IMG/VR virus record: IMGVR_UViG_3300033475_000014
Location: 12,770 to 76,769 of that record
Strand: one strand, 5' to 3'
Origin: a virus
Taxonomy: Duplodnaviria; Caudoviricetes
Length of the DNA: 64,000 nucleotides
Shown here piece after piece: positions 3,053 through 64,000 of the stretch. Made by a program: the position numbers and the translations under genes. A model generated the notes under the pieces. The model made no database searches and was not told the DNA's origin. It was given only the letters and a program-made list of their open reading frames with translations. Positions within the stretch are counted from its first letter, which is position 1. Each line of letters begins with the position of its first letter.

Positions 3053-3909
3053 TAGTAAACTATCCTTAAGGTATTAGGAACTACGAGCGGATCTCTCAAA
3101 ACTACTAAGCTGCCAAAGTTATTATTTGGATTAGGAAGAAACGATGCTTGTATACGGGCTTGTGTGAATCCTGAGGCCTTAGCCTGCATGGCGCTTTGGA
3201 TAGCGAATATATACCCGTTCTGCTGAGTGCCTGGGGCCACTGGAGTATAGGTGGTGCCCTGTCCTGGGCCGCCTGTGAAAGCTAATACCCATGGAGTGTA
3301 ATTGGCGGGGTTGTTATATCCGATATATTTAACACCCGATGGAGTGGTGCTAACGTTAGTTACGATAGAAAGCACTGCTGGGGACTGAGCCCGAGAGTGT
3401 AAGATAAAGTCTCGTAGATCGTTTGAAGCAATACTCTTTTGGTATTTAGATACCTTTATCCCTGTGGTTGGGTCGTATGGAGTCGATACTGTAGGGAATT
3501 TAGGAAGCGTATAATCTACGCCAGTCGAAATATCTACGTTATAGCATTTAATACTTACCGTGTAGGTTACAGCGTTATATAAACCTCGGTTAACGAAATA
3601 AATCTTGTTATTATCGAAGGTGAATACTACGTCATTTTGAGCGCTAGATAAGTTACCCGAAGAACCAAAGGTGCGTCCAATACTTACGCCATTTAAAATA
3701 GTCCATCCCATTGTTAAAGGATAAAACCCTAATCCATGCGTAACAGTTGCAGAAACTGAGAACCCATCAGTATAGGGAACTTGTACGACTGTTTCATATG
3801 CGATAGCTAAAGATGGCCAGTCGGAATTAAACACATATTGGTAATCTGCCGCAAATGGGTCGCTCACGCCAATCTGGGTGACCCGTATACCTGCTGAATT
3901 AGAAGCCAC
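3052..3909 (-). CDS. Virion structural protein, unknown function
   Basis: 285 aa beta-rich, within the tail operon. Confidence 0.5.
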   Translation of the reverse strand: MASNSAGIRVTQIGVSDPFAADYQYVFNSDWPSLAIAYETVVQVPYTDGFSVSATVTHGLGFYPLTMGWTILNGVSIGRTFGSSGNLSSAQNDVVFTFDNNKIYFVNRGLYNAVTYTVSIKCYNVDISTGVDYTLPKFPTVSTPYDPTTGIKVSKYQKSIASNDLRDFILHSRAQSPAVLSIVTNVSTTPSGVKYIGYNNPANYTPWVLAFTGGPGQGTTYTPVAPGTQQNGYIFAIQSAMQAKASGFTQARIQASFLPNPNNNFGSLVVLRDPLVVPNTLRIVY

Positions 3910-4236: not shown

Positions 4237-6294
4237 CTAGTTATCTGGTGCAACTTCTACTTCGCCCATTGTTGGGTCTACTTCTAGTGTAACACCTGTA
4301 AAGTCTGGAGGTGTTGTTAGACCTGATGGCATTGTAAAGTCAAACCCATACGATATTTCATGGAAACGAGTATTTATTTCAATAAGGGCGTTTGTCGCAT
4401 CTGTTGTATTCGTAGCCGCAGCGGTTGTTTTTGTGCCACGATCTAACTTATAGTACGGTGTTACACTTGCTCCTGCTGGCAATCCAGTGAAGCTAACTTT
4501 AGCCCTGTTCGCATACTTTTGCTTAAACCTAGACCCGCCATCGAATATAAGGGATTCCCATGTTCCTGACTGTGCAGCAGTAGATGAGTTATCTAATATA
4601 TCAATCCCATATGTTGTTACGCCGCCTTGTGTATACGCCCACGATGTATACAGGGTGTCGACAAAGTTCTGATTCATACCTATTTGAAGGTTAGTAACAC
4701 CGCTCGTATTGTTATTGAGTAGACCATTAGACATCTGGTAAGAATACCCAAATGAGTTAGGGAATGTCATCTCGACAGCACCCCACGAGTAATTACCATA
4801 ATCCACATTAGGATTTGTGGTAGATGAAGGGTAACCTATAAGAAGAATGTTGTACCTTGAAGTAAACATGTTAGGGTTAACAATAGTGGAATCTGCGGTG
4901 CCGAGATAATCGGTGTTCTGGTAGGCAATTTTCCTCACTTTAATAACTGTCGTTCCGCCGCTCCATGCGTATAGGGAACCTGCTACAGTGAAGTAGACAA
5001 CATTATTTACTGAATAAAGCCCGTATGGTGCCCCCATAGGTATATCAATAATAGATGTAGGCTGAGGAGTAGTACCATCCCAGAAATACAGAGCACCGTC
5101 CTGGAAGTTACGCGAAGAGTTCCTACTGCGACGTTCAACTCCAATAACTAGTTGATTATTGTTAGTGGTTAACCCGCAAACCTCATATCCTGCCTTGAAC
5201 ACGAGCTGATGACGAATCCAATCATTATTCGAGGGATTGTTATCACTAGCAAAGTTATATGTAGATAAGTACTGACCATTCCCTATACAAAGAGCTTGAC
5301 CATTACCCGTCCCCGTGGCCACATTGAATAGTGCAGTAGGATGCCATCCGTTCGTTGTTTGGACAAGCCTGTAAGCACTCCACGTCATATATGCTGACAT
5401 AAAATCGCCTGTGGCGCTTGAGCCGTAAGATACAGGTACAACGGCGATTGTTCCATCGCTTACCGTAGAAGTAAGGTGCCAGTGGTAGTTAGCTGCTCCT
5501 GAAGCGATACCACCACCAACAAGCACGCGAATCTGCGATCCAAATACAAACTCGTTAAGAGCATTAGAAGTGACATTAGCATTTGTAAGGGTCTTGAATG
5601 CTAGTTTGTTGTTCTGCGAATCATGGAGTGTAAGAGTATAGTCACCCGTACCCTTAGAAGCAATGTATACAGAGATGGAGTACCCTGGCTCAATATCTGG
5701 CGAGAACAAGCAATAACTCGAGGGGTCTTCTTTAATTGTTGTCGGTACTGGATAAGTCGCGCCGAGCGTTGCTGCAACAGAGCGAAGTGCACCATCAAAG
5801 TTTCCATCGTCTGGGTTATAAATTTGGGTCGTACCATTATTGATAGATACAGATTGCGCAAAGTTATTACTTCTAAATGCTGGTTGACCTGTATTCCCCG
5901 TCGTTACCTGGCCATACATTGAAACACTCGTCTGACCTGGGATATACAACTGGTCGGTCACCTGGTTATATAGAATGCCCGCAGAGCCTGCCTCAGACAT
6001 CTGTGCAACGTCCGAGATGACGTTCGACGTACTAATACGGTAAATATACCCTCTATCGCCTACCATCCAGCGTACGCCGTTTAAATCCTGGTCTATGGCC
6101 AATGGAAGGTCAGGTAAAGTAGTACTTAGCGCACGAGGGGCAGGAAGCACTGACATCTGGGCAGGGTCTGAACGAAAGTCTAAGTTACGGGATTTATAAA
6201 ATGAATTAGATACACCTAACTTATTGGAAGTCGAGACACCTCCAGTGAAAAAGTTAGTATTGATCTGTATTTTAGAAGAATTTCCTTTTGCCAT
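4237..6294 (-). CDS. Tail tube/stabilisation protein (P22 gp10 / T7 gp12-like)
   Basis: 685 aa beta-propeller-like sequence directly after the adaptor gene. Confidence 0.65.
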   Translation of the reverse strand: MAKGNSSKIQINTNFFTGGVSTSNKLGVSNSFYKSRNLDFRSDPAQMSVLPAPRALSTTLPDLPLAIDQDLNGVRWMVGDRGYIYRISTSNVISDVAQMSEAGSAGILYNQVTDQLYIPGQTSVSMYGQVTTGNTGQPAFRSNNFAQSVSINNGTTQIYNPDDGNFDGALRSVAATLGATYPVPTTIKEDPSSYCLFSPDIEPGYSISVYIASKGTGDYTLTLHDSQNNKLAFKTLTNANVTSNALNEFVFGSQIRVLVGGGIASGAANYHWHLTSTVSDGTIAVVPVSYGSSATGDFMSAYMTWSAYRLVQTTNGWHPTALFNVATGTGNGQALCIGNGQYLSTYNFASDNNPSNNDWIRHQLVFKAGYEVCGLTTNNNQLVIGVERRSRNSSRNFQDGALYFWDGTTPQPTSIIDIPMGAPYGLYSVNNVVYFTVAGSLYAWSGGTTVIKVRKIAYQNTDYLGTADSTIVNPNMFTSRYNILLIGYPSSTTNPNVDYGNYSWGAVEMTFPNSFGYSYQMSNGLLNNNTSGVTNLQIGMNQNFVDTLYTSWAYTQGGVTTYGIDILDNSSTAAQSGTWESLIFDGGSRFKQKYANRAKVSFTGLPAGASVTPYYKLDRGTKTTAAATNTTDATNALIEINTRFHEISYGFDFTMPSGLTTPPDFTGVTLEVDPTMGEVEVAPDN

Positions 6295-10843: not shown

Positions 10844-12360
10844 TAGTTACTCCCTATGTACGTTACACCTTCACCGTTCACCGATGAGTCTATATTCACT
10901 GTATTTAGGTTAGCAATATCTAGGTTTACTGTATCGCCCGCCGCGAGCTGGAAACCGTTCGTAGACGAAACCGTAGAACTACCTACATAGATAATTCCCG
11001 TATTGGTAGTGAGAGCCTTAATAGCAACGGATTTAACCGCCTGAGAAGACGCAAGCACAACTCGTGTACCAGCTGTGGTGACTGTCGTCTTGCCATTAAA
11101 CACGGTTGTAGGAGCAACTGGGGTGCTCTGCACGGCAAATGTACCTGTCCCTACTACAGTTGCATTTAGGTTAGCGGCTGTTGCCTGCCTAACAAATACA
11201 TTTCCATCTGCGCCCTTAATGTCTAGGAACCCTGGAGTGGTTGGGGCTGTATTTAGAATAGAGCGGATATTCATATCCAGACCAGTTGTAGCGGTCGTCG
11301 TGGTTGAGTTAGAGGTAATTGCTGTCCCACTCCCATCGTAGGTACTAGAGGCTGTTGTAAGCGCTCCTGATGGGTTTACTTTCACATCAACAAATGCGCT
11401 ACCGCCAGCAGTAGTTAGGCCGACTATAGAAGATTTGGTAAGCTGCGCGTGATTGGTAGAGTTTGGTACGGTGACCATTGTGACCATGTCGCCATTCTGT
11501 GCGCCAGTCTTTAGTGTAGCTTGGAGACGGAATGTGGTTTGGTTTGTACCACCATTTGTGTAAACAATACGATAATATTGTGCGCGAGCAGGTGCACCAA
11601 ATATCTGACCATCGTTAGGGGCTGTCCCACCAGCGGTAAATGTGGATGTGCTTGAATCATTCCAGTTAGTATTATCTGATGAAAACTCAATCTTTACCCC
11701 ATTAGCAGCACTTGATTGATCCGAGAAAACATATAGTTGGATAAATGAGTACCCCAGAGTTGATAGACCCGTACCTGTAAACGTAGAGTTAGCGATAAGA
11801 GTCGCTGTGCTAGAGTTTCCGCTATCTACTTTACCAGGCATTATAGTATTTAACTGGTTAGTAGTCGTGCCTATCTCTACGCCAGAAGAATCCCTAAGGT
11901 TGACATGCTGCCCACGGTTGGCAGTAATCGCTACAGCGGCAGCTCTTCCGTCTGTTACTGCGTCAATTGTCGAGTGATAGAAGCCCATTGCCGGCGTACC
12001 CGTAGATGTACCAGCGGTAAATGCCGAGTTGTCTGTCGTTCCACCAACCGAAAGTGAGCCCGTGACTTTTAGGTTACCAGAGCTGTCTAGCTGCGGCTCC
12101 CACATCTGCCCATCGGTAAGAGAGGGTGGAGTGGCTTGATAGCGTGCAAGAGCGAGCGTACCTGTAGCAGGAGAAGTAGTCGCGCCCTCTTGATATTGTG
12201 TCCCTCCAGAGCCTCCTCCTGTAACAGAGGTGAGCACCGATCCATCGGTTGGGTTTACGGCAACGGGTACAGGAGTAGCGCCATCAATAGAAGATAGACC
12301 CTCTAGGAGCGGAGCGCGGTTAGGGCCGAATGGTTGAGGCTTTGTTGTCCAGTTAACTAT
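10843..12360 (-). CDS. Tail fibre/virion protein, probable non-canonical ATA start
   Basis: Frame is open 41 codons upstream of the track start; AGGAG lies 6 nt before ATA at 12360; internal domain shared with 48276-49268. Confidence 0.55.
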   Translation of the reverse strand: MVNWTTKPQPFGPNRAPLLEGLSSIDGATPVPVAVNPTDGSVLTSVTGGGSGGTQYQEGATTSPATGTLALARYQATPPSLTDGQMWEPQLDSSGNLKVTGSLSVGGTTDNSAFTAGTSTGTPAMGFYHSTIDAVTDGRAAAVAITANRGQHVNLRDSSGVEIGTTTNQLNTIMPGKVDSGNSSTATLIANSTFTGTGLSTLGYSFIQLYVFSDQSSAANGVKIEFSSDNTNWNDSSTSTFTAGGTAPNDGQIFGAPARAQYYRIVYTNGGTNQTTFRLQATLKTGAQNGDMVTMVTVPNSTNHAQLTKSSIVGLTTAGGSAFVDVKVNPSGALTTASSTYDGSGTAITSNSTTTTATTGLDMNIRSILNTAPTTPGFLDIKGADGNVFVRQATAANLNATVVGTGTFAVQSTPVAPTTVFNGKTTVTTAGTRVVLASSQAVKSVAIKALTTNTGIIYVGSSTVSSTNGFQLAAGDTVNLDIANLNTVNIDSSVNGEGVTYIGSN

Positions 12361-23579: not shown

Positions 23580-24113
23580 TTACTCTTCTTTCTGTGATTG
23601 CTTAAGGGTGGCCAATTTCTGTATTGCGTCTACAGTAAACATCCCTGGATCATTAAGCCATTTGTTTAACGTTGGTCGAGATATTCCTAATAAATCGGCT
23701 ATCCACTCACGTGTGTACAAAGGATTGCGCTTTGCATAAAATTGTCGTGCTTTTATACGTTCGCTTTTCCGTGCTTCCAAGGCTATGCGTTGGTCACGAG
23801 ATTTGATGAGGTGCACTATTAAGTCGAGTTCTTGAGATTCGTTCCTTGAGCTCTCATATAGACATCCGCCGTGATGGTTTGCTTCGCAATAGCCTAATGC
23901 ACACTTTATCTTCTGTCGTAGTCCATCCTCTTCACCAACCACTTTGAGGACTTCCTTAAGGGGGTTTTCCACAGATGGATGTAGCTCGCTTCTAAACTGT
24001 ACATATGATTTGAAGTCAAGTTCATCAAACCCATTCTCTTCTCTAATATACCCTTTGAACAGCTGTATGGCTTCGTCCAGGTTCTTAGGCTCTTTATTAG
24101 GTGTGTCTGCCAT
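23580..24113 (-). CDS. Mosaic early protein with a C-terminal HTH
   Basis: REWIADLLGISRPTLNKW HTH; shares four short blocks with 63334-63897. Confidence 0.65.
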   Translation of the reverse strand: MADTPNKEPKNLDEAIQLFKGYIREENGFDELDFKSYVQFRSELHPSVENPLKEVLKVVGEEDGLRQKIKCALGYCEANHHGGCLYESSRNESQELDLIVHLIKSRDQRIALEARKSERIKARQFYAKRNPLYTREWIADLLGISRPTLNKWLNDPGMFTVDAIQKLATLKQSQKEE

Positions 24114-24216
24114 TACTTTGCCTCCAATAGCTCACTATTTTCGTAGATGTTGCCGATGACTTCGACATACTGAGCCGTCTGATGCGCGTTCATAGGGCTC
24201 CAGTTAGTACCGTCTG
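24090..24216 (+). repeat. Direct repeat copy 1 (at least 127 bp, identical to 63874-64000)
   Basis: Base-by-base comparison; offset 39,784 bp. Confidence 0.95.
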
Positions 24217-30234: not shown

Positions 30235-30810
30235 CTATTCTTTCTTCATATCCTTAAGCTGTTGGATGATTGACGATGCGTCTGCGGCTGAGTGAATCCT
30301 GTCATATACTGCAACGAGCCACTTTTCATCTTTACCTAACCCTTCACCGAGCGTCTTGATAAGGTCTAGCTGGTTAGCTGTAGCAGGTCGAGCAGTAGAT
30401 GCCTTAGGTGGTTCAGGTTGCTTCTTCTTTGCACTCCCTGCGTTACCATCGTCGTCTTCATCTGCTACCAAGCCAGTCATAGCCATATCGCCATATCGTC
30501 GTAGATATGTTACAGCCGATCCAACTGATTGAGGGTCGTTCTTGACTGGGTTTAGTTTCCACTCGCCAGTGATATGCTCGCCAGACTCGTGGATAAGGTA
30601 AAACCTTAATCCATTCTCGTTTTCTAGAATTGTCGGGACTGCTATAAGTGCTAGTTTGTTCTTCTCAAGTAGCGGCTGTAGAAGCTCCCTAACCTCTGGT
30701 AGGGGTGCGTAGCTGTTTTTATAGAATGGATTTGTTGCCGACTTATCTACGGCCTTTAGTTCTTTTTGCAGGCTAACAATAGCCTTGGATATTTCTACTC
30801 CTATATTCAT
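30235..30810 (-). CDS. erf: ERF-family ssDNA-annealing recombinase
   Basis: NPFYKNSYAPL...DPQSVGSAVTYLRRY...EDDDGN. Confidence 0.9.
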   Translation of the reverse strand: MNIGVEISKAIVSLQKELKAVDKSATNPFYKNSYAPLPEVRELLQPLLEKNKLALIAVPTILENENGLRFYLIHESGEHITGEWKLNPVKNDPQSVGSAVTYLRRYGDMAMTGLVADEDDDGNAGSAKKKQPEPPKASTARPATANQLDLIKTLGEGLGKDEKWLVAVYDRIHSAADASSIIQQLKDMKKE

Positions 30811-30850
30811 AAATTCCTTTCTCTATTCTGTATTGCAAAATTTAGTAGTG

Positions 30851-30976
30851 GATTGAGTGTATGGTGCTGATAACAAAGACGGCTTCACAGTCACCTTATG
30901 CTTGGTGCATCCGACGGTTGATTCCCCTTATCGCATCTTTAGGTTTGCTACCAGCACTATTACACTCAATCATTCA
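30851..30976 (-). ncRNA. Long-stem RNA element, copy 2
   Basis: TGAATGATTGAGTGTAATAGTGCTGGTAGCAAA...TTTGTTATCAGCACCATACACTCAATC. Confidence 0.65.
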
Positions 30977-31242
30977 TTACCCACAAGGGATGGCCTCAGC
31001 CTACCCAAAGTCAACTATTACCCCAGTGTGACGCCACCCTTTGTGAATAACGAACATGCATACCTTAGTTCACTAATCCCTCCAGTAGGTAGTTGTCGCA
31101 TTTCGATAAACTGTCGGCTCTATATAAATCTTTAGCCCGTTCGTAATGCTTCATACTTCCACCATCTCTTGGTAGTAGTTACTTCGTGGCGTTTACCACT
31201 CAGTTCTTGCAAATGAATTGTTAAGGTCTTACACCTTTGGAC

Positions 31243-31268
31243 ATATCAATCTGCAATTGGTACATCCA
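31243..31268 (+). repeat. 26-bp repeat copy 1 (putative sRNA target)
   Basis: ATATCAATCTGCAATTGGTACATCCA, identical to 31713-31738. Confidence 0.9.
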
Positions 31269-31280
31269 TTCGGTGAAACA

Positions 31281-31306
31281 AAAATAACCGCCTCGTTGGC
31301 GGTTTA
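31281..31306 (-). terminator. Intrinsic terminator
   Basis: AACCGCC-AACGA-GGCGGTT followed by ATTTTT. Confidence 0.6.
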
Positions 31307-31349
31307 TGTCTTTATATCCCGGCGGCAACGAGTATTGGCGTAGAACGGG

Positions 31350-31378
31350 TAATAAAAAAGCACCCTATATGGGTGCAA
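31350..31378 (-). terminator. Intrinsic terminator after the tRNA fragment
   Basis: GCACCC-ATATA-GGGTGC followed by TTTTTT. Confidence 0.7.
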
Positions 31379-31388
31379 AGTAGTCTTA

Positions 31389-31429
31389 GTTTACAAAACA
31401 GCTGCTCTAACCAGCTGAGCTAAAGCGGC
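31389..31429 (-). other. 5' half of tRNA-Thr(UGU): att site (attP-like junction)
   Basis: GCCGCTT TA GCTC AGCTGGTTA GAGC A GCTGT TTTGTAA AC, then diverges; no T arm or 3' acceptor strand; integrase about 1 kb away. Confidence 0.8.
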
Positions 31430-31542
31430 ACTTACGCTATTTTAGCAGTGGTTGGCTGTAAACTCAAGACAAAACCCATATTTTCTACAAATTTTGTTTG
31501 AAAGGTCCACGGTTATTTGAAGTAATTCATTTAACCTACTTG

Positions 31543-31598
31543 CATTGTAGCAAACTGTGTGCGTTTTGTCAACATGCTTACGGCTGGAGTGGTATAAT
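31543..31598. promoter_or_regulatory. Divergent sigma70-type promoters
   Basis: Leftward TTGACA-17-TACAAT; rightward extended -10 TGGTATAAT. Confidence 0.7.
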
Positions 31599-31603
31599 AG
31601 AAG

Positions 31604-31679
31604 TGGTAGCTTTATTTTTCTAGATGCAAGTCACTACCTATTTATTAAAAGACTTCTGATTTATCAGAGGTCTTTTTTA
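31604..31679 (+). ncRNA. Candidate sRNA-1 (about 75 nt)
   Basis: Bounded by TGGTATAAT and the terminator AAGACTTCTGA-TTTA-TCAGAGGTCTT-TTTT. Confidence 0.5.
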
Positions 31680-31712
31680 TTGACCTTAGTCCCCTTCTTT
31701 GCTATGATATAA

Positions 31713-31767
31713 ATATCAATCTGCAATTGGTACATCCAGCCTCGTCATGAGGGCTGGTATTTTTTGT
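31713..31767 (+). ncRNA. Candidate sRNA-2 (about 55 nt) whose 5' 26 nt match 31243-31268
   Basis: TTGACC(31680)-17-TATGAT(31703) promoter; terminator CCAGCC...GGCTGG-TATTTTTT. Confidence 0.7.
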
Positions 31768-32049
31768 ATCAAAATCTCATTTCGTTGTATTACAACAATC
31801 TATACGGTATGTTCGCAGCCATACCGGATAACTAAAACTGCTGGATTTTTCGCGTGCTGAGACAAATTACCCGCTCTGTTTTCCCTAACAACGGGTGACC
31901 TACTCAGTACACGAAAATTACCAAATACATTGTGGGATGCAAGCCAATAGAACGTTAATAGCGGTGAGGCCCGGGGCTTACAGTTGCATGGTTATAGATT
32001 CATAAAGGGGTAGACTTTCCTGCTGGGTTAGTAGGGGATAGAGGGATAT

Positions 32050-32235
32050 ATGGTTAAAGTTTCTAAAGAAGAATGTGAACACGAGTGGAAGAAGTTCAAG
32101 GAAACAGTACGTGTAGAGCGCACAGAGGCTCAGTTACGTAAGGGACAACATTATACGGGTAACGGTGCTCACTTCATCGTAAGAGCCTGTATGAAGTGCA
32201 AGAAGAAACAACGGGTAGACTACATAGTCGAATAG
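32050..32235 (+). CDS. Small Cys/His (Zn-binding?) protein
   Basis: 61 aa, CEHEW...CMKC, SD GAGGG. Confidence 0.55.
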   Translation: MVKVSKEECEHEWKKFKETVRVERTEAQLRKGQHYTGNGAHFIVRACMKCKKKQRVDYIVE

Positions 32236-32419
32236 GAGGAATAGTTAAAAAATGGTACACAAAATATTATCACTATATACTTTGTGGAGCGTACGTATTA
32301 AGATTATCGAAATACGTCATGTAAATGGCCTAGCACCTCTGTTCTTGTAGGTACCAGGATTCAATTATACGCTCCATGAACCTACGCTATTAATTTTAGT
32401 GTGAGAAAGGAGCGTATTT

Positions 32420-33262
32420 ATGTTGCTATCTGAAGCGATAAGCGAGTTTATTAGATATAAGGTCGTGCGCCGTGGTTCTACCCGCGATACTGAGATTACC
32501 TACCGAAGCACTATGAATGGGTTCCTTAAGTGTGTCGGGGACATTCAAGTAGAAGATTTAACAATTTACACAATAGATTCTTATGCCGATGAGCTATCTC
32601 TTAAAGGATACATGCCTAAAACATATCATAACAAGATGGCTACTGTTAGAAGCTTTGTAAGATTCCTCTATGCTAAGGACCTTACTAACATACGACCAGA
32701 ATCTGTAGAACTCCCTAAGTCCGTAAGTCCCGAGGCTAACTTCCTCTCCCCTGCCGAACAAGAGGTACTGTTATCTGTTATTAAGAAGCCACGTGATCTC
32801 GCTATTGTGCGGGTGATGATAGCAAGTGGTGCCCGAGTGTCAGAACTTACTAATCTGAAATATGACGACTTCTACATTGACTCGATCGTTATCCAGCACG
32901 GTAAGGGCGGGAAATCTCGTCCTACTTTTTTAACTGAACGAGCTGCAGAGAGTTTACAAAACTACCTAAAAACTAAACGAAGAACAGAGTACTTGTTTAC
33001 AAATAGTTTTGGCGAGAAGCTATCGCGCCAGTATGTAGCAAGGATAGTCTCACAGTACGCCTCTGACGCTGGTATCGGTAAGAAAGTGACCCCTCATACA
33101 CTGAGGCACTCATTTGCGACGAATATGCTGCAGAACGGTGCCCGGGTAGAAATAGTCCAGCCGTTAATGGGGCATGCAAATATTAGGACCACGCTTATAT
33201 ATGCGCACTTCACTAACAATTATCTTAAAGAAGAGTACCAGAAGTACGCAAGCAAGGCTTAA
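32420..33262 (+). CDS. int: Tyrosine integrase (XerC/D-like)
   Basis: Complete catalytic set: SGARVSEL, GKGGK, HTLRH, MGHANI, IYAH. Confidence 0.95.
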   Translation: MLLSEAISEFIRYKVVRRGSTRDTEITYRSTMNGFLKCVGDIQVEDLTIYTIDSYADELSLKGYMPKTYHNKMATVRSFVRFLYAKDLTNIRPESVELPKSVSPEANFLSPAEQEVLLSVIKKPRDLAIVRVMIASGARVSELTNLKYDDFYIDSIVIQHGKGGKSRPTFLTERAAESLQNYLKTKRRTEYLFTNSFGEKLSRQYVARIVSQYASDAGIGKKVTPHTLRHSFATNMLQNGARVEIVQPLMGHANIRTTLIYAHFTNNYLKEEYQKYASKA

Positions 33263-33417
33263 GCTAGCAGAACGCCGCCAAGTAGCAACGATACGAGTAC
33301 GGCATAGATAACCGCGATAACTAGACATAGACGCTCTTTAACGCCGAAACTAGCTAATGTGTAGTGACTAACTGCGTATGCGATAAAGAATAGTAATGTG
33401 ATTTCTAGTAATTTCAT
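33259..33417 (-). CDS. 52-aa two-TM membrane protein
   Basis: MKLLEITLLFFIAYAV...LLLGGVLLA*; its stop overlaps the integrase stop in TTAA. Confidence 0.6.
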   Translation of the reverse strand: MKLLEITLLFFIAYAVSHYTLASFGVKERLCLVIAVIYAVLVSLLLGGVLLA

Positions 33418-33704
33418 AGGTTCCCCTTATTTAGTGGTTTCGTATCAACGGTAAATGAAGCAGTATCAGTATTTGCCTTATATGCGGCCGTTATAGCCTT
33501 CAGGAGCGATAGGAAAGCTGCGAGTAGAGCGATACCAATAATGAGTGGAAGGATGCTCATAACCTGCCCAAATGAGCTTACAAGGTCTGCCCCCGTGTTA
33601 CTTGCTGCAGCTGGTACTAGCACTCCCACAACAGCAATGATTGCCTGTGCGAATGTTGATATGGCTCGCTCCGATGCATCTTGCCAGAATAGTTTAGTAA
33701 ACAT
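33414..33704 (-). CDS. Holin (r1t-like)
   Basis: FWQDASERAISTFAQAII, two TM segments, adjacent to the lysin. Confidence 0.8.
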   Translation of the reverse strand: MFTKLFWQDASERAISTFAQAIIAVVGVLVPAAASNTGADLVSSFGQVMSILPLIIGIALLAAFLSLLKAITAAYKANTDTASFTVDTKPLNKGNL

Positions 33705-33712
33705 CTTTCCTC

Positions 33713-34594
33713 CTATTTGATGTTAAATATCTTTTTAAACCAGCTGACCAGCTGATTAAGTAGAGTATTGTTTGCTTTAACAGTATTGAGGATTTCTGTG
33801 TAGTCGTCCTTCTCGGCAACTGGCTTACCTGAGTCTGGTAGTGTCTGCCCTGAGTTGTCGGTAGTTGTAGGAGACGGAGTAGTGAATTTAGACCTAAGAT
33901 TAGATGTCACATCAGTGCCATTCACTGTAATACTCGCCGCAGCATTGTTCATGTAGCAATTCCAAGCATTAATATCTTTAGAGAATGCACCGATTTGTTT
34001 GCCATCCTTACTTACCTTATAAAGTAGAGAACTCACGGGAGTGGATGGAGCTGGCTGGCTAGGCGGTGCTGTTGGAGGTGGAGTAGTTGACTTATTAGTG
34101 ACGCTTCCCCAATCTGCATTTGATTGTTTTGTATAACTCATATTATCTAACCTTACAATGTCGTATACGCCAGGACAGGTCGTCCCTGTCCACATATTGT
34201 GTGAATAGAGTGGTACATCACCGTAAGCACTTCTAATGTCTGCAATAAGCTCTGAAACAACGTCATAGTCCTCATCTCTTGCTCGTGGGTCGCACTCTAC
34301 CCCGATAGTCTTAGCGTTGCCATATGCGCTGCCCGAGTGCCATGCTACGTCCATTGGAGATACGATGCAAGATACGCGTCGTCCTGTGCCTGTAGCAACA
34401 TAATGTGCACTCGTATTCCCGTTTATTCTATCTAGATAATCTCTAACACCCTCATACAAAGGGTTCTGGTTCGGATCACCCCACCAGTGTATCGTAATGC
34501 CCTCTATAGTTCGGTTATAGCCAAACACAGCAGTAGAGCTAGCTTGAGGCGTGTAGTTTGGTGAGTTGTGTGATGTGTCGTAGCTGTAACTCAT
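33713..34594 (-). CDS. Endolysin, N-acetylmuramoyl-L-alanine amidase (Amidase_2-like)
   Basis: ITIHWW...SAHY...AWHSG...IGVEC...H...CPG. Confidence 0.85.
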   Translation of the reverse strand: MSYSYDTSHNSPNYTPQASSTAVFGYNRTIEGITIHWWGDPNQNPLYEGVRDYLDRINGNTSAHYVATGTGRRVSCIVSPMDVAWHSGSAYGNAKTIGVECDPRARDEDYDVVSELIADIRSAYGDVPLYSHNMWTGTTCPGVYDIVRLDNMSYTKQSNADWGSVTNKSTTPPPTAPPSQPAPSTPVSSLLYKVSKDGKQIGAFSKDINAWNCYMNNAAASITVNGTDVTSNLRSKFTTPSPTTTDNSGQTLPDSGKPVAEKDDYTEILNTVKANNTLLNQLVSWFKKIFNIK

Positions 34595-35115: not shown

Positions 35116-35376
35116 CTAGCGCCTCCGGTCGTTTTCTTTAATCGAAACCAGGATGTCATACATTTTCTCGCTCATCTTCCCTTGCTCTTCGAGTGGCTTG
35201 ATTACGAAATCAGTTACCTCTTTAGCTTCAGCAAGTCGCTTTTCTTGAAGGTCGTTATATGCTTTATCCTTGTCTTTTCCGTCTCTGTATAGGAAAACAA
35301 CCACAATCCCAAGAACAATAAGACCAACGCCAGCAAGACCGTATTGGTAGAGAATACCTAGTGCTTCGCTACTCAC
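35116..35376 (-). CDS. Holin-like single-TM protein
   Basis: QYGLAGVGLIVLGIVVVFLY followed by a coiled coil. Confidence 0.6.
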   Translation of the reverse strand: MSSEALGILYQYGLAGVGLIVLGIVVVFLYRDGKDKDKAYNDLQEKRLAEAKEVTDFVIKPLEEQGKMSEKMYDILVSIKENDRRR

Positions 35377-63333: not shown

Positions 63334-63897
63334 TTACTCTTCTTTCTGTGATTGCTTAAGGGTAGCAGAAATTGGATAGTTAAGAGCTGGGTCTATACCT
63401 GTAGCTTCCTTATACTGACCTCTGAGAGCGCTTTTAATTCCCTTGAATGTAGGGTCATTGTCATCGTCGTCACCCGTTGAACTGAAATGCGTTTTATCAA
63501 TTATTCCAACAGCCCAAACAAATGCTATTGCTTGGGCTTCCAAGACTATGCGTTGGTCACGAGATTTGAGAACGTCGATTAGTGGCGTCCATCCAAATTC
63601 TTTAGTTTCAGCATAGTATGTTGACATCATTAGGACGTCGCCTTTGTAATCAGTGCGATTGAGAATGTTTTCTAGCTCATCCTCTCCACCAACCACTTTG
63701 AGGAAGACCTCAAAGTGGTTTTCACGAGCCATAAAGAATCTTAGAATACCTGGTAACATTCCAGCATAGTACAGCTTATCCCATATGTCCTTACCAGAAA
63801 TGTCTGGGAATGAGGTGTTCCTGCTTAGCATGTACTCTTTGAACTCGCCTGCAAGCTTCAATAACTCTTCATCCTCTTTATTAGGTGTGTCTGCCAT
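63334..63897 (-). CDS. Mosaic early protein, allele of 23580-24113
   Basis: MADTPNKE / LKVVG / KSRDQRI / ATLKQSQKEE blocks. Confidence 0.65.
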   Translation of the reverse strand: MADTPNKEDEELLKLAGEFKEYMLSRNTSFPDISGKDIWDKLYYAGMLPGILRFFMARENHFEVFLKVVGGEDELENILNRTDYKGDVLMMSTYYAETKEFGWTPLIDVLKSRDQRIVLEAQAIAFVWAVGIIDKTHFSSTGDDDDNDPTFKGIKSALRGQYKEATGIDPALNYPISATLKQSQKEE

Positions 63898-64000
63898 TAC
63901 TTTGCCTCCAATAGCTCACTATTTTCGTAGATGTTGCCGATGACTTCGACATACTGAGCCGTCTGATGCGCGTTCATAGGGCTCCAGTTAGTACCGTCTG
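63874..64000 (+). repeat. Direct repeat copy 2 (includes the 3' end of a second yopX), truncated by the window end
   Basis: Identical to 24090-24216. Confidence 0.95.

Follow-up and report, generated by a model that had tools for sequence, protein, structure and literature searches.

A candidate stand-alone antisense RNA matched to the early-operon leader of Saccharibacteria phages

Introduction

Immunity of the phage-plasmid P4 through its CI RNA was reportedly described by Deho, Ghisotti and co-workers in the 1990s. CI is processed out of the leader that it controls and acts by premature termination. The C4 RNAs of P1/P7 and the CA RNA of N15 arise by processing of longer precursors; they act, with Rho-dependent polarity, at a ribosome-binding site and work beside a protein repressor (C1 and CB). 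To our knowledge, RNA-only immunity is known from this handful of enterobacterial elements (P4, P1/P7, N15). Other short antisense RNAs are the plasmid counter-transcripts (CopA/CopT, RNA I/RNA II, and the RNAIII of pT181 and pIP501) and the phage cis-antisense RNAs P22 sar and lambda OOP; because counter-transcripts are encoded in cis, on the strand opposite their target, their complementarity is automatic. As for integration, the tRNA-gene attP sites of temperate phages are said to have been surveyed by Williams in 2002.

Here we analyze a phage of Candidatus Saccharibacteria. These hosts are ultra-small epibiotic bacteria of the Candidate Phyla Radiation whose gene regulation and phage biology are, as far as we know, almost unstudied; our literature search returned reports of Saccharibacteria prophages and nothing on their regulation. 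An initial annotation, made from the sequence of this phage alone, had proposed that a small RNA (sRNA) encoded near the integrase gene matches the leader of the oppositely transcribed early operon and silences it. We compare this locus with its counterparts in related phages, and the design that they share, with differing matched sequences, is indicative of an as yet undescribed family of RNA-based switches for lysogeny or immunity.

Results

The window, by which we mean the whole stretch of 64,000 nucleotides that was analyzed, is the final 64 kb of a 76.8-kb IMG/VR contig. Its last 127 nt (63874-64000, at the contig end) are an exact repeat of 24090-24216, and the independent contig L004 is colinear across the 24090/63873 join, so that the true phage is a unit of 39,784 bp (24090-63873). 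The 76.8-kb record is a chimera or “lollipop”, in which the 39.8-kb phage is joined to ~37 kb from a related phage, made up of window 1-24089 and the 12.8 kb that precede the window. The region studied here lies within a single pass of the contig. Gene order in its surroundings is holin and amidase (33414-34594, minus strand), integrase (plus strand), a 61-aa ORF, ~900 bp of non-coding DNA and the leftward early operon.

The 26-mer ATATCAATCTGCAATTGGTACATCCA occurs in two exact plus-strand copies (31243-31268 and 31713-31738) and is the longest direct repeat of the phage unit. The repeat described in the initial annotation is therefore real: there are exactly two perfect copies, no third copy at up to 3 mismatches in the window, and 0 matches in 100 shuffles. 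The exact 26-mer is absent from the 185,000 species genomes searched, and megablast of the repeat region against deposited phages gave no match. Four further contigs (L004, L213, L214 and L215) each independently bear out one copy plus its flanks.

Relatives were found through an alignment of the integrase:

32420-33262, plus strand: tyrosine integrase of 280 aa (Pfam PF00589 at 1e-35, PF02899; PHROG integrase)

As a single query, the integrase had no match among viral contigs and one distant match among genome contigs; the alignment, when run against genome contigs, gave only chromosomal Xer-like genes at ≤38% identity among the matches listed. The relatives found with the alignment carry the same promoter, tRNA-Thr half and terminator. 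Our comparison comprises four independent lineages with five specificities; besides these, the integrase has homologues at 90% and 60% (P0001, P0004) and hundreds more at 49%. The integrases of G001, G002 and G005 are 48-55% identical to that of the window phage.

The second copy of the 26-mer is the “seed” of a compact putative transcription unit:

31680-31708, plus strand: sRNA promoter TTGACC-17-TATGAT with a TG-extended -10 (promoter scan, consensus match)
31713-31766, plus strand: predicted sRNA of about 52-54 nt, with seed (31713-31738), terminator hairpin (31736-31757) and U-tract to 31766 (sequence and fold)

The seed begins 4 nt past the -10 hexamer, and its last 3 nt are the first bases of the terminator hairpin stem, which is followed by a T-run; the annotation had placed this copy between promoter and terminator in just this way. 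In the predicted fold, the seed forms a 5′ hairpin (7 bp, loop CUGCA) ahead of the terminator (z = -2.5). In the close relatives L213, L214 and L215, both the -35 and the -10 hexamer (here TATAAT) are kept, as are seed and hairpin, while the promoter spacer varies. Constant hexamers around a varying spacer are the pattern expected of a working promoter, and conservation of promoter and hairpin was one of the checks that the annotation had suggested. L214 has a seed variant (T4 to G) that could not be matched up with its leader.

Rfam returned no match at gathering score in the whole window, and a search for C4-type matches at E≤5 in 30800-32100 returned only chance matches driven by the terminator. 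The C4/CI trait of being processed from the controlled leader is likewise absent from the sequence, given the separate promoter and terminator of the predicted sRNA, its position on the opposite strand and the 470 nt between it and its target. By these sequence features, the sRNA would not belong to the C4/CI antisense RNA family.

Two further elements flank the sRNA unit on the plus strand:

31569-31598, plus strand: conserved promoter TCAACA-18-TATAAT (promoter scan, relatives)
31850-32045, plus strand in the window (also L121:15452-15662 and L035:4778-4966): conserved structured non-coding element of ~200 nt with 36 predicted pairs

Between the first of these and the sRNA promoter lies a hypervariable, terminator-ended cassette (31599-31679, plus strand). 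In the window phage it consists of a 75-nt RNA plus terminator, and L213, L214 and L215 have unrelated sequences of 100-300 nt there, between flanks that are about 100% identical. No complement of the cassette RNA was found elsewhere in the phage. The structured element, located between the sRNA terminator and int, has compensatory changes in 9 of its 36 predicted pairs, a count drawn from three lineages only, and has no Rfam match. At its 3′ end begins the 61-aa Cys/His ORF (32050-32235), which is shortened by stops in G001 and L035. The annotation had considered its product as a partner of the sRNA; this is unlikely because the ORF is not conserved in relatives.

The first copy of the 26-mer lies in the leader of the early operon, whose features are, in the order of transcription:

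31439-31572, minus strand: two phage-borne promoters into the tRNA half, TTGACA-17-TACAAT (31572-31544) and TTGAGT-17-TAAAAT (31467-31439) (promoter scan)
31389-31429, minus strand: attP core, 41 nt that match the 5′ half of host tRNA-Thr(UGU) exactly (identity to host genes)
31360-31376, minus strand: terminator t1, directly past the tRNA half (terminator scan)
31286-31304, minus strand: terminator t2, directly upstream of the target (terminator scan)
31243-31268, minus strand: target site, of which the minus-strand RNA is the exact complement of the seed (repeat search)
31215-31227, minus strand: boxA-like motif ACCTTAACAATTC, 15 nt downstream of the target (sequence)
30235-31154, minus strand: start of the early operon, with a 29-aa ORF (31154-31068) and Erf recombinase (30810-30235) (ORFs, Pfam, PHROGs)

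The target is predicted to fold into the mirror-image hairpin of the seed, and the same site is present in L004. The boxA-like motif, found where the annotation had reported it, resembles the 16S-leader sequence TCCTTTGACAATTTAG of one host. It is conserved in the leaders of all four lineages (including G001, L035 and L039) and reads CACCTTAACAATC in G001, AACCTTAACAACTC in G002 and TTTTAACAATTT in G005. It lies 15, about 85 or about 135 nt from the target, distances too variable for direct occlusion of boxA to be a general mode of action. A terminator follows right after the tRNA half in all relatives and precedes the target in G001, G002 and G005 too. The two promoters that read into the tRNA half are the sole sigma-70-like minus-strand promoters upstream of the early genes within 30500-32600, and in the window phage, G001 and G005 the stretch from the terminators to the early genes contains no such promoter. 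Early transcripts thus probably start at tRNA-type promoters and then read through the terminators.

In 27 Saccharibacteria species, the tRNA-Thr gene matches the attP core at 100% identity; identity to Saccharibacteria tRNA-Thr(UGU) extends over 41-46 nt and stops 2 nt past the anticodon loop. ARAGORN reports no whole tRNA at 31389-31429, and the Rfam tRNA model also misses the half. G001 is an integrated prophage with 42-nt attL/attR repeats of the tRNA-Thr half. L215, a lysogen junction of a near-identical phage in a metagenome, shows a complete tRNA-Thr and then tRNA-Tyr, in a Saccharibacteria-like flank. An exact block of identity to a host tRNA and recombinant junctions (G001, L215) thus both mark this site as a tRNA-targeting attP. 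The core sits between the two 26-mers, so the first copy does not lie across the att site as initially annotated. The accompanying expectation, that sRNA gene and target would come to sit at opposite ends of the prophage, can be seen directly in the prophages G001 and G004 and at the L215 junction. Since the phage carries a promoter plus the 5′ half of the tRNA gene, integration leaves the displaced host promoter and 5′ half pointing into the early operon of the prophage (window phage, G001, G005), where one or two terminators stop reading from it. The tRNA half of G002 has the opposite orientation with respect to the early operon, and the target still lies between terminator and boxA-like motif, so the site is part of the leader rather than of att. 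The ends of contigs L004 and L213 fall exactly within the tRNA-Thr half, and the attP design (promoter and 5′ tRNA half, then terminators) would account for such breaks of the contigs of these phages at attP. The G001 prophage also contains a GC-rich repeat of 17-42 nt (GCCGCCCCGACGTGGGAG...) four times, at 11052, 16916, 17009 and 28178.

In the window phage, the two 26-mers flank the attP core as direct repeats at +120 and -309 nt, an arrangement that would suit arm-type sites of the integrase, or the scar (an att or target-site duplication) of a recombination around the attP cassette. Relatives with the same core lack repeats on either side of it, and arm sites are thereby rejected. In these relatives, the copies are inverted and separated by 1.4-3.4 kb that include int or replication genes. 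The integrase has SAM-like and catalytic domains only, without an arm-binding domain, and the 444-bp spacer between the copies has no host homology beyond the tRNA half. Both versions of this explanation are largely refuted, and we regard them as highly improbable. A duplication around a host-derived insert of 444 bp was rejected as well: only the 41-46-nt tRNA half matches the host, no approximate 26-mer occurs near host tRNA-Thr genes, and a 13/14 resemblance noticed by eye in L021 proved unfounded.

The same architecture recurs in the other lineages with unrelated sequences:

G001, seed at 35286-35309: sRNA unit TTGACA-17-TATTGT, 6 nt, 24-nt seed running into the terminator
G001, 696-719: target, complementary to the seed, just after attL, t1 and t2
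G002/L035, seed at 4640-4659: sRNA unit TTGACT-17-TATTAT, 7 nt, 20-nt seed, terminator
G002/L035, 6090-6109: target with two differences, both G.U in the RNA duplex
G005/L039, seed at 2698: sRNA unit TTGACT-17-TAATAT, 7 nt, seed, terminator at 2717-2742
G005/L039, 6054-6071: exact reverse complement as the target (18 nt); 26 nt with one G.U
G004: seed-target pair as in G005, with the copies 30 kb apart at opposite provirus ends

Each unit runs from its promoter over 4-7 nt to a seed of 20-26 nt that extends 3-8 nt into the terminator, and each seed is complementary to the early leader of its own phage, just after a terminator and before the boxA-like motif. G005/L039 is a complete genome with terminal repeats. 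The annotation had named co-variation of sRNA 5′ segment and target as a test of its proposal, and this is what we observe: the seeds differ between lineages, each matches its own leader, and this lineage-specific pairing of a small RNA with an early leader, as expected of RNA-based immunity, amounts to five specificities in the four lineages. Directly observed are the repeat itself, the architecture of the unit, the return of this architecture with sequences that co-vary, and the geometry of att. In the window phage, the two copies are direct repeats and their units diverge, whereas in the other phages they are inverted repeats and both units lie on one strand; at the RNA level they are antisense to each other in every lineage (4/4), and seeds and targets form mirror hairpins in the predicted folds of most lineages. 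Repeats in the distant integrase relatives L068 and L081 were not convincing, and an architecture-only scan of 79 tRNA-Thr-bearing viral loci for further sRNA units was too noisy.

Two of the specificities occur within one clade. Eight leaders of the G005 type are near-identical except in the target loop, which has two alleles, and G008 combines the alternative target with the matching alternative seed in an sRNA gene 30 kb away on the same contig. For G005 and G008, the cognate duplexes (-45.9 and -41.7 kcal/mol) are 10-14 kcal/mol more stable than the non-cognate ones (-32.6 and -31.5 kcal/mol). The genomes of G008 and of G005, G009 and G010 are too mosaic to tell if only seed and target differ. 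In phages of the G005 type, the sRNA unit is followed directly by genes for an HTH_36 initiator and a DnaB-type helicase, and then by int. The HTH_36 replication-initiator gene of L039 contains three to four 24-nt tandem repeats (3288-3384) that look like origin iterons.

Identical DNA at two regulatory places would likewise co-vary with the specificity of a protein, and both copies may instead be operators, bound as double-stranded DNA by an unrecognized repressor or roadblock protein next to an incidental short transcript. In keeping with this, many small ORFs are unannotated, and G008 differs from G005 over much of its genome, which leaves room for a co-varying protein. Searches of about 40 phage ORFs against Pfam and PHROGs gave no CI/Cro/XRE-type protein, so that the initial statement that there is no recognizable repressor stands for this set. 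They assigned Erf, NinG, YopX, SSB, HNH and terminase; the sole HTH match is a winged helix of weak score, and the protein that contains it matches the PHROG of a DnaD-like helicase loader, again weakly. Many early ORFs are of no known function, and a novel protein repressor is possible. Against operators stand that no HTH repressor was found, that the copies have no dyad symmetry beyond the hairpin stems, that they are antisense relative to local transcription in all four lineages, and that the edges of the match coincide with +1 and the terminator each time. Moreover, four of the five non-Watson-Crick positions are G.U in the RNA duplex, the G008 pair having one A.C mismatch. Binding as DNA is therefore an improbable explanation.

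In all lineages, the complementarity enters the 5′ arm of the sRNA terminator, by 3 nt in the window phage, 5 in G001, 4 in G002 and 8 in G005. This suggests a reverse or reciprocal logic, in which early-leader RNA pairs with the nascent sRNA and blocks its terminator, so that transcription runs into int and, in phages of the G005 type, would also reach the replication genes. In that case, the “sRNA” would chiefly be an attenuated leader that belongs to the integrase operon, a role that could coexist with repression of the early operon as a two-RNA bistable switch. Few other promoters are available for int: in the window phage, the only sigma-70-like plus-strand promoters upstream of it start at 31569 and 31680; G001 has none besides that of the sRNA, and the only other one of L035 is a 9/12 match inside int. 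With pairing that always enters the terminator stem and few promoters upstream, abundant leader RNA could switch on int, and the G005 unit does precede the HTH_36 initiator, the DnaB helicase and then int. However, the window phage would lose just 3 of about 7 stem pairs, antitermination in trans requires pairing within the few nucleotides before the hairpin forms, and the structured element and the terminators of the neighboring cassette are also on the path to int. We consider control in this direction plausible, but of low probability.

Discussion

The explanation that we favor, with reasonable though not strong confidence, is that the element encodes a stand-alone, trans-encoded antisense sRNA whose 5′ end pairs with the hairpin of the early leader and silences the lytic operon. 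Such RNAs would constitute a new family of antisense RNAs encoded in trans, most likely with the early operon as the target of silencing. We infer that the sRNA is made, that it represses, and by which route it may do so. It would have a promoter of its own, constitutive in appearance, and stop at an intrinsic terminator of its own. The leader would be fed by strong promoters, namely, while the genome is circular, the phage-borne tRNA promoters and, in the prophage state, the tRNA-Thr promoter of the host, and its transcript would pass one or two terminators, then the target and then a putative rrn-type boxA. The 5′ 20-26 nt of the sRNA would pair with the leader hairpin, probably starting loop-to-loop, and thereby neutralize read-through transcripts. 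The resulting duplex of 20-26 bp, two helical turns, may be cut by RNase III, may hinder the loading of Nus factors at boxA, or both. RNase III and NusB are present in the two Saccharibacteria genomes sampled, in which no Rho was found above cut-off, and a P4- or P1-like Rho-dependent route is unlikely in such a host. The outcome would be a silent prophage and sequence-specific immunity against superinfecting phages of the same specificity.

Repression and reciprocal control might also be combined, although we hold this to be rather doubtful, in an all-RNA, two-way lysis-lysogeny switch of these Saccharibacteria phages that operates without a protein repressor. The sRNA would destroy or disable early-leader transcripts, and abundant leader would open the sRNA terminator and turn on the integrase and replication genes, with the short seed as a swappable module of immunity specificity. 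Because a prophage inserted at the 5′ half of tRNA-Thr has its lytic operon connected to the host tRNA promoter, the growth state of the host could set the balance.

If antisense silencing is correct, these phages have arrived independently at a much simpler form of RNA-only immunity, with one primary transcript and one seed. The seed-target pair would be a compact and evidently re-programmable specificity module, and a direct handle for predicting the immunity groups of uncultured phages from sequence. The attP design is itself unusual. As in other phages that use tRNA genes, the block of identity with the host tRNA gene stops close to the anticodon loop, and integration restores a whole gene, but here the phage carries the promoter and the 5′ half rather than the usual 3′ part.

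Among RNA-based systems, the likeness to P4 would lie in immunity by a small RNA instead of a protein repressor, in pairing with the leader of an early operon, in specificity that resides in the pairing sequence, and in a leader that is transcribed constitutively. In contrast to P4 CI, the predicted sRNA has its own promoter and terminator and is encoded 0.5-3.4 kb from its target, at the other end of the prophage; it is also shorter, has a single target site, matches no Rfam C4/CI model, and occurs in phages whose sampled hosts are without Rho. With P1/P7 C4 and N15 CA it would share the principle of trans-acting antisense RNAs that hold an anti-repressor or lytic function off and whose heteroimmune variants differ in the pairing bases, whereas its target adjoins the boxA-like motif, at least about 90 nt away from the first start codon. 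Finally, as in plasmid and phage counter-transcripts, a short hairpin RNA that ends in a terminator would meet the mirror-image hairpin of a leader, and full duplexes of this kind are RNase III substrates. Unlike in counter-transcripts, sRNA and target are separate loci here that must co-evolve, as is observed.
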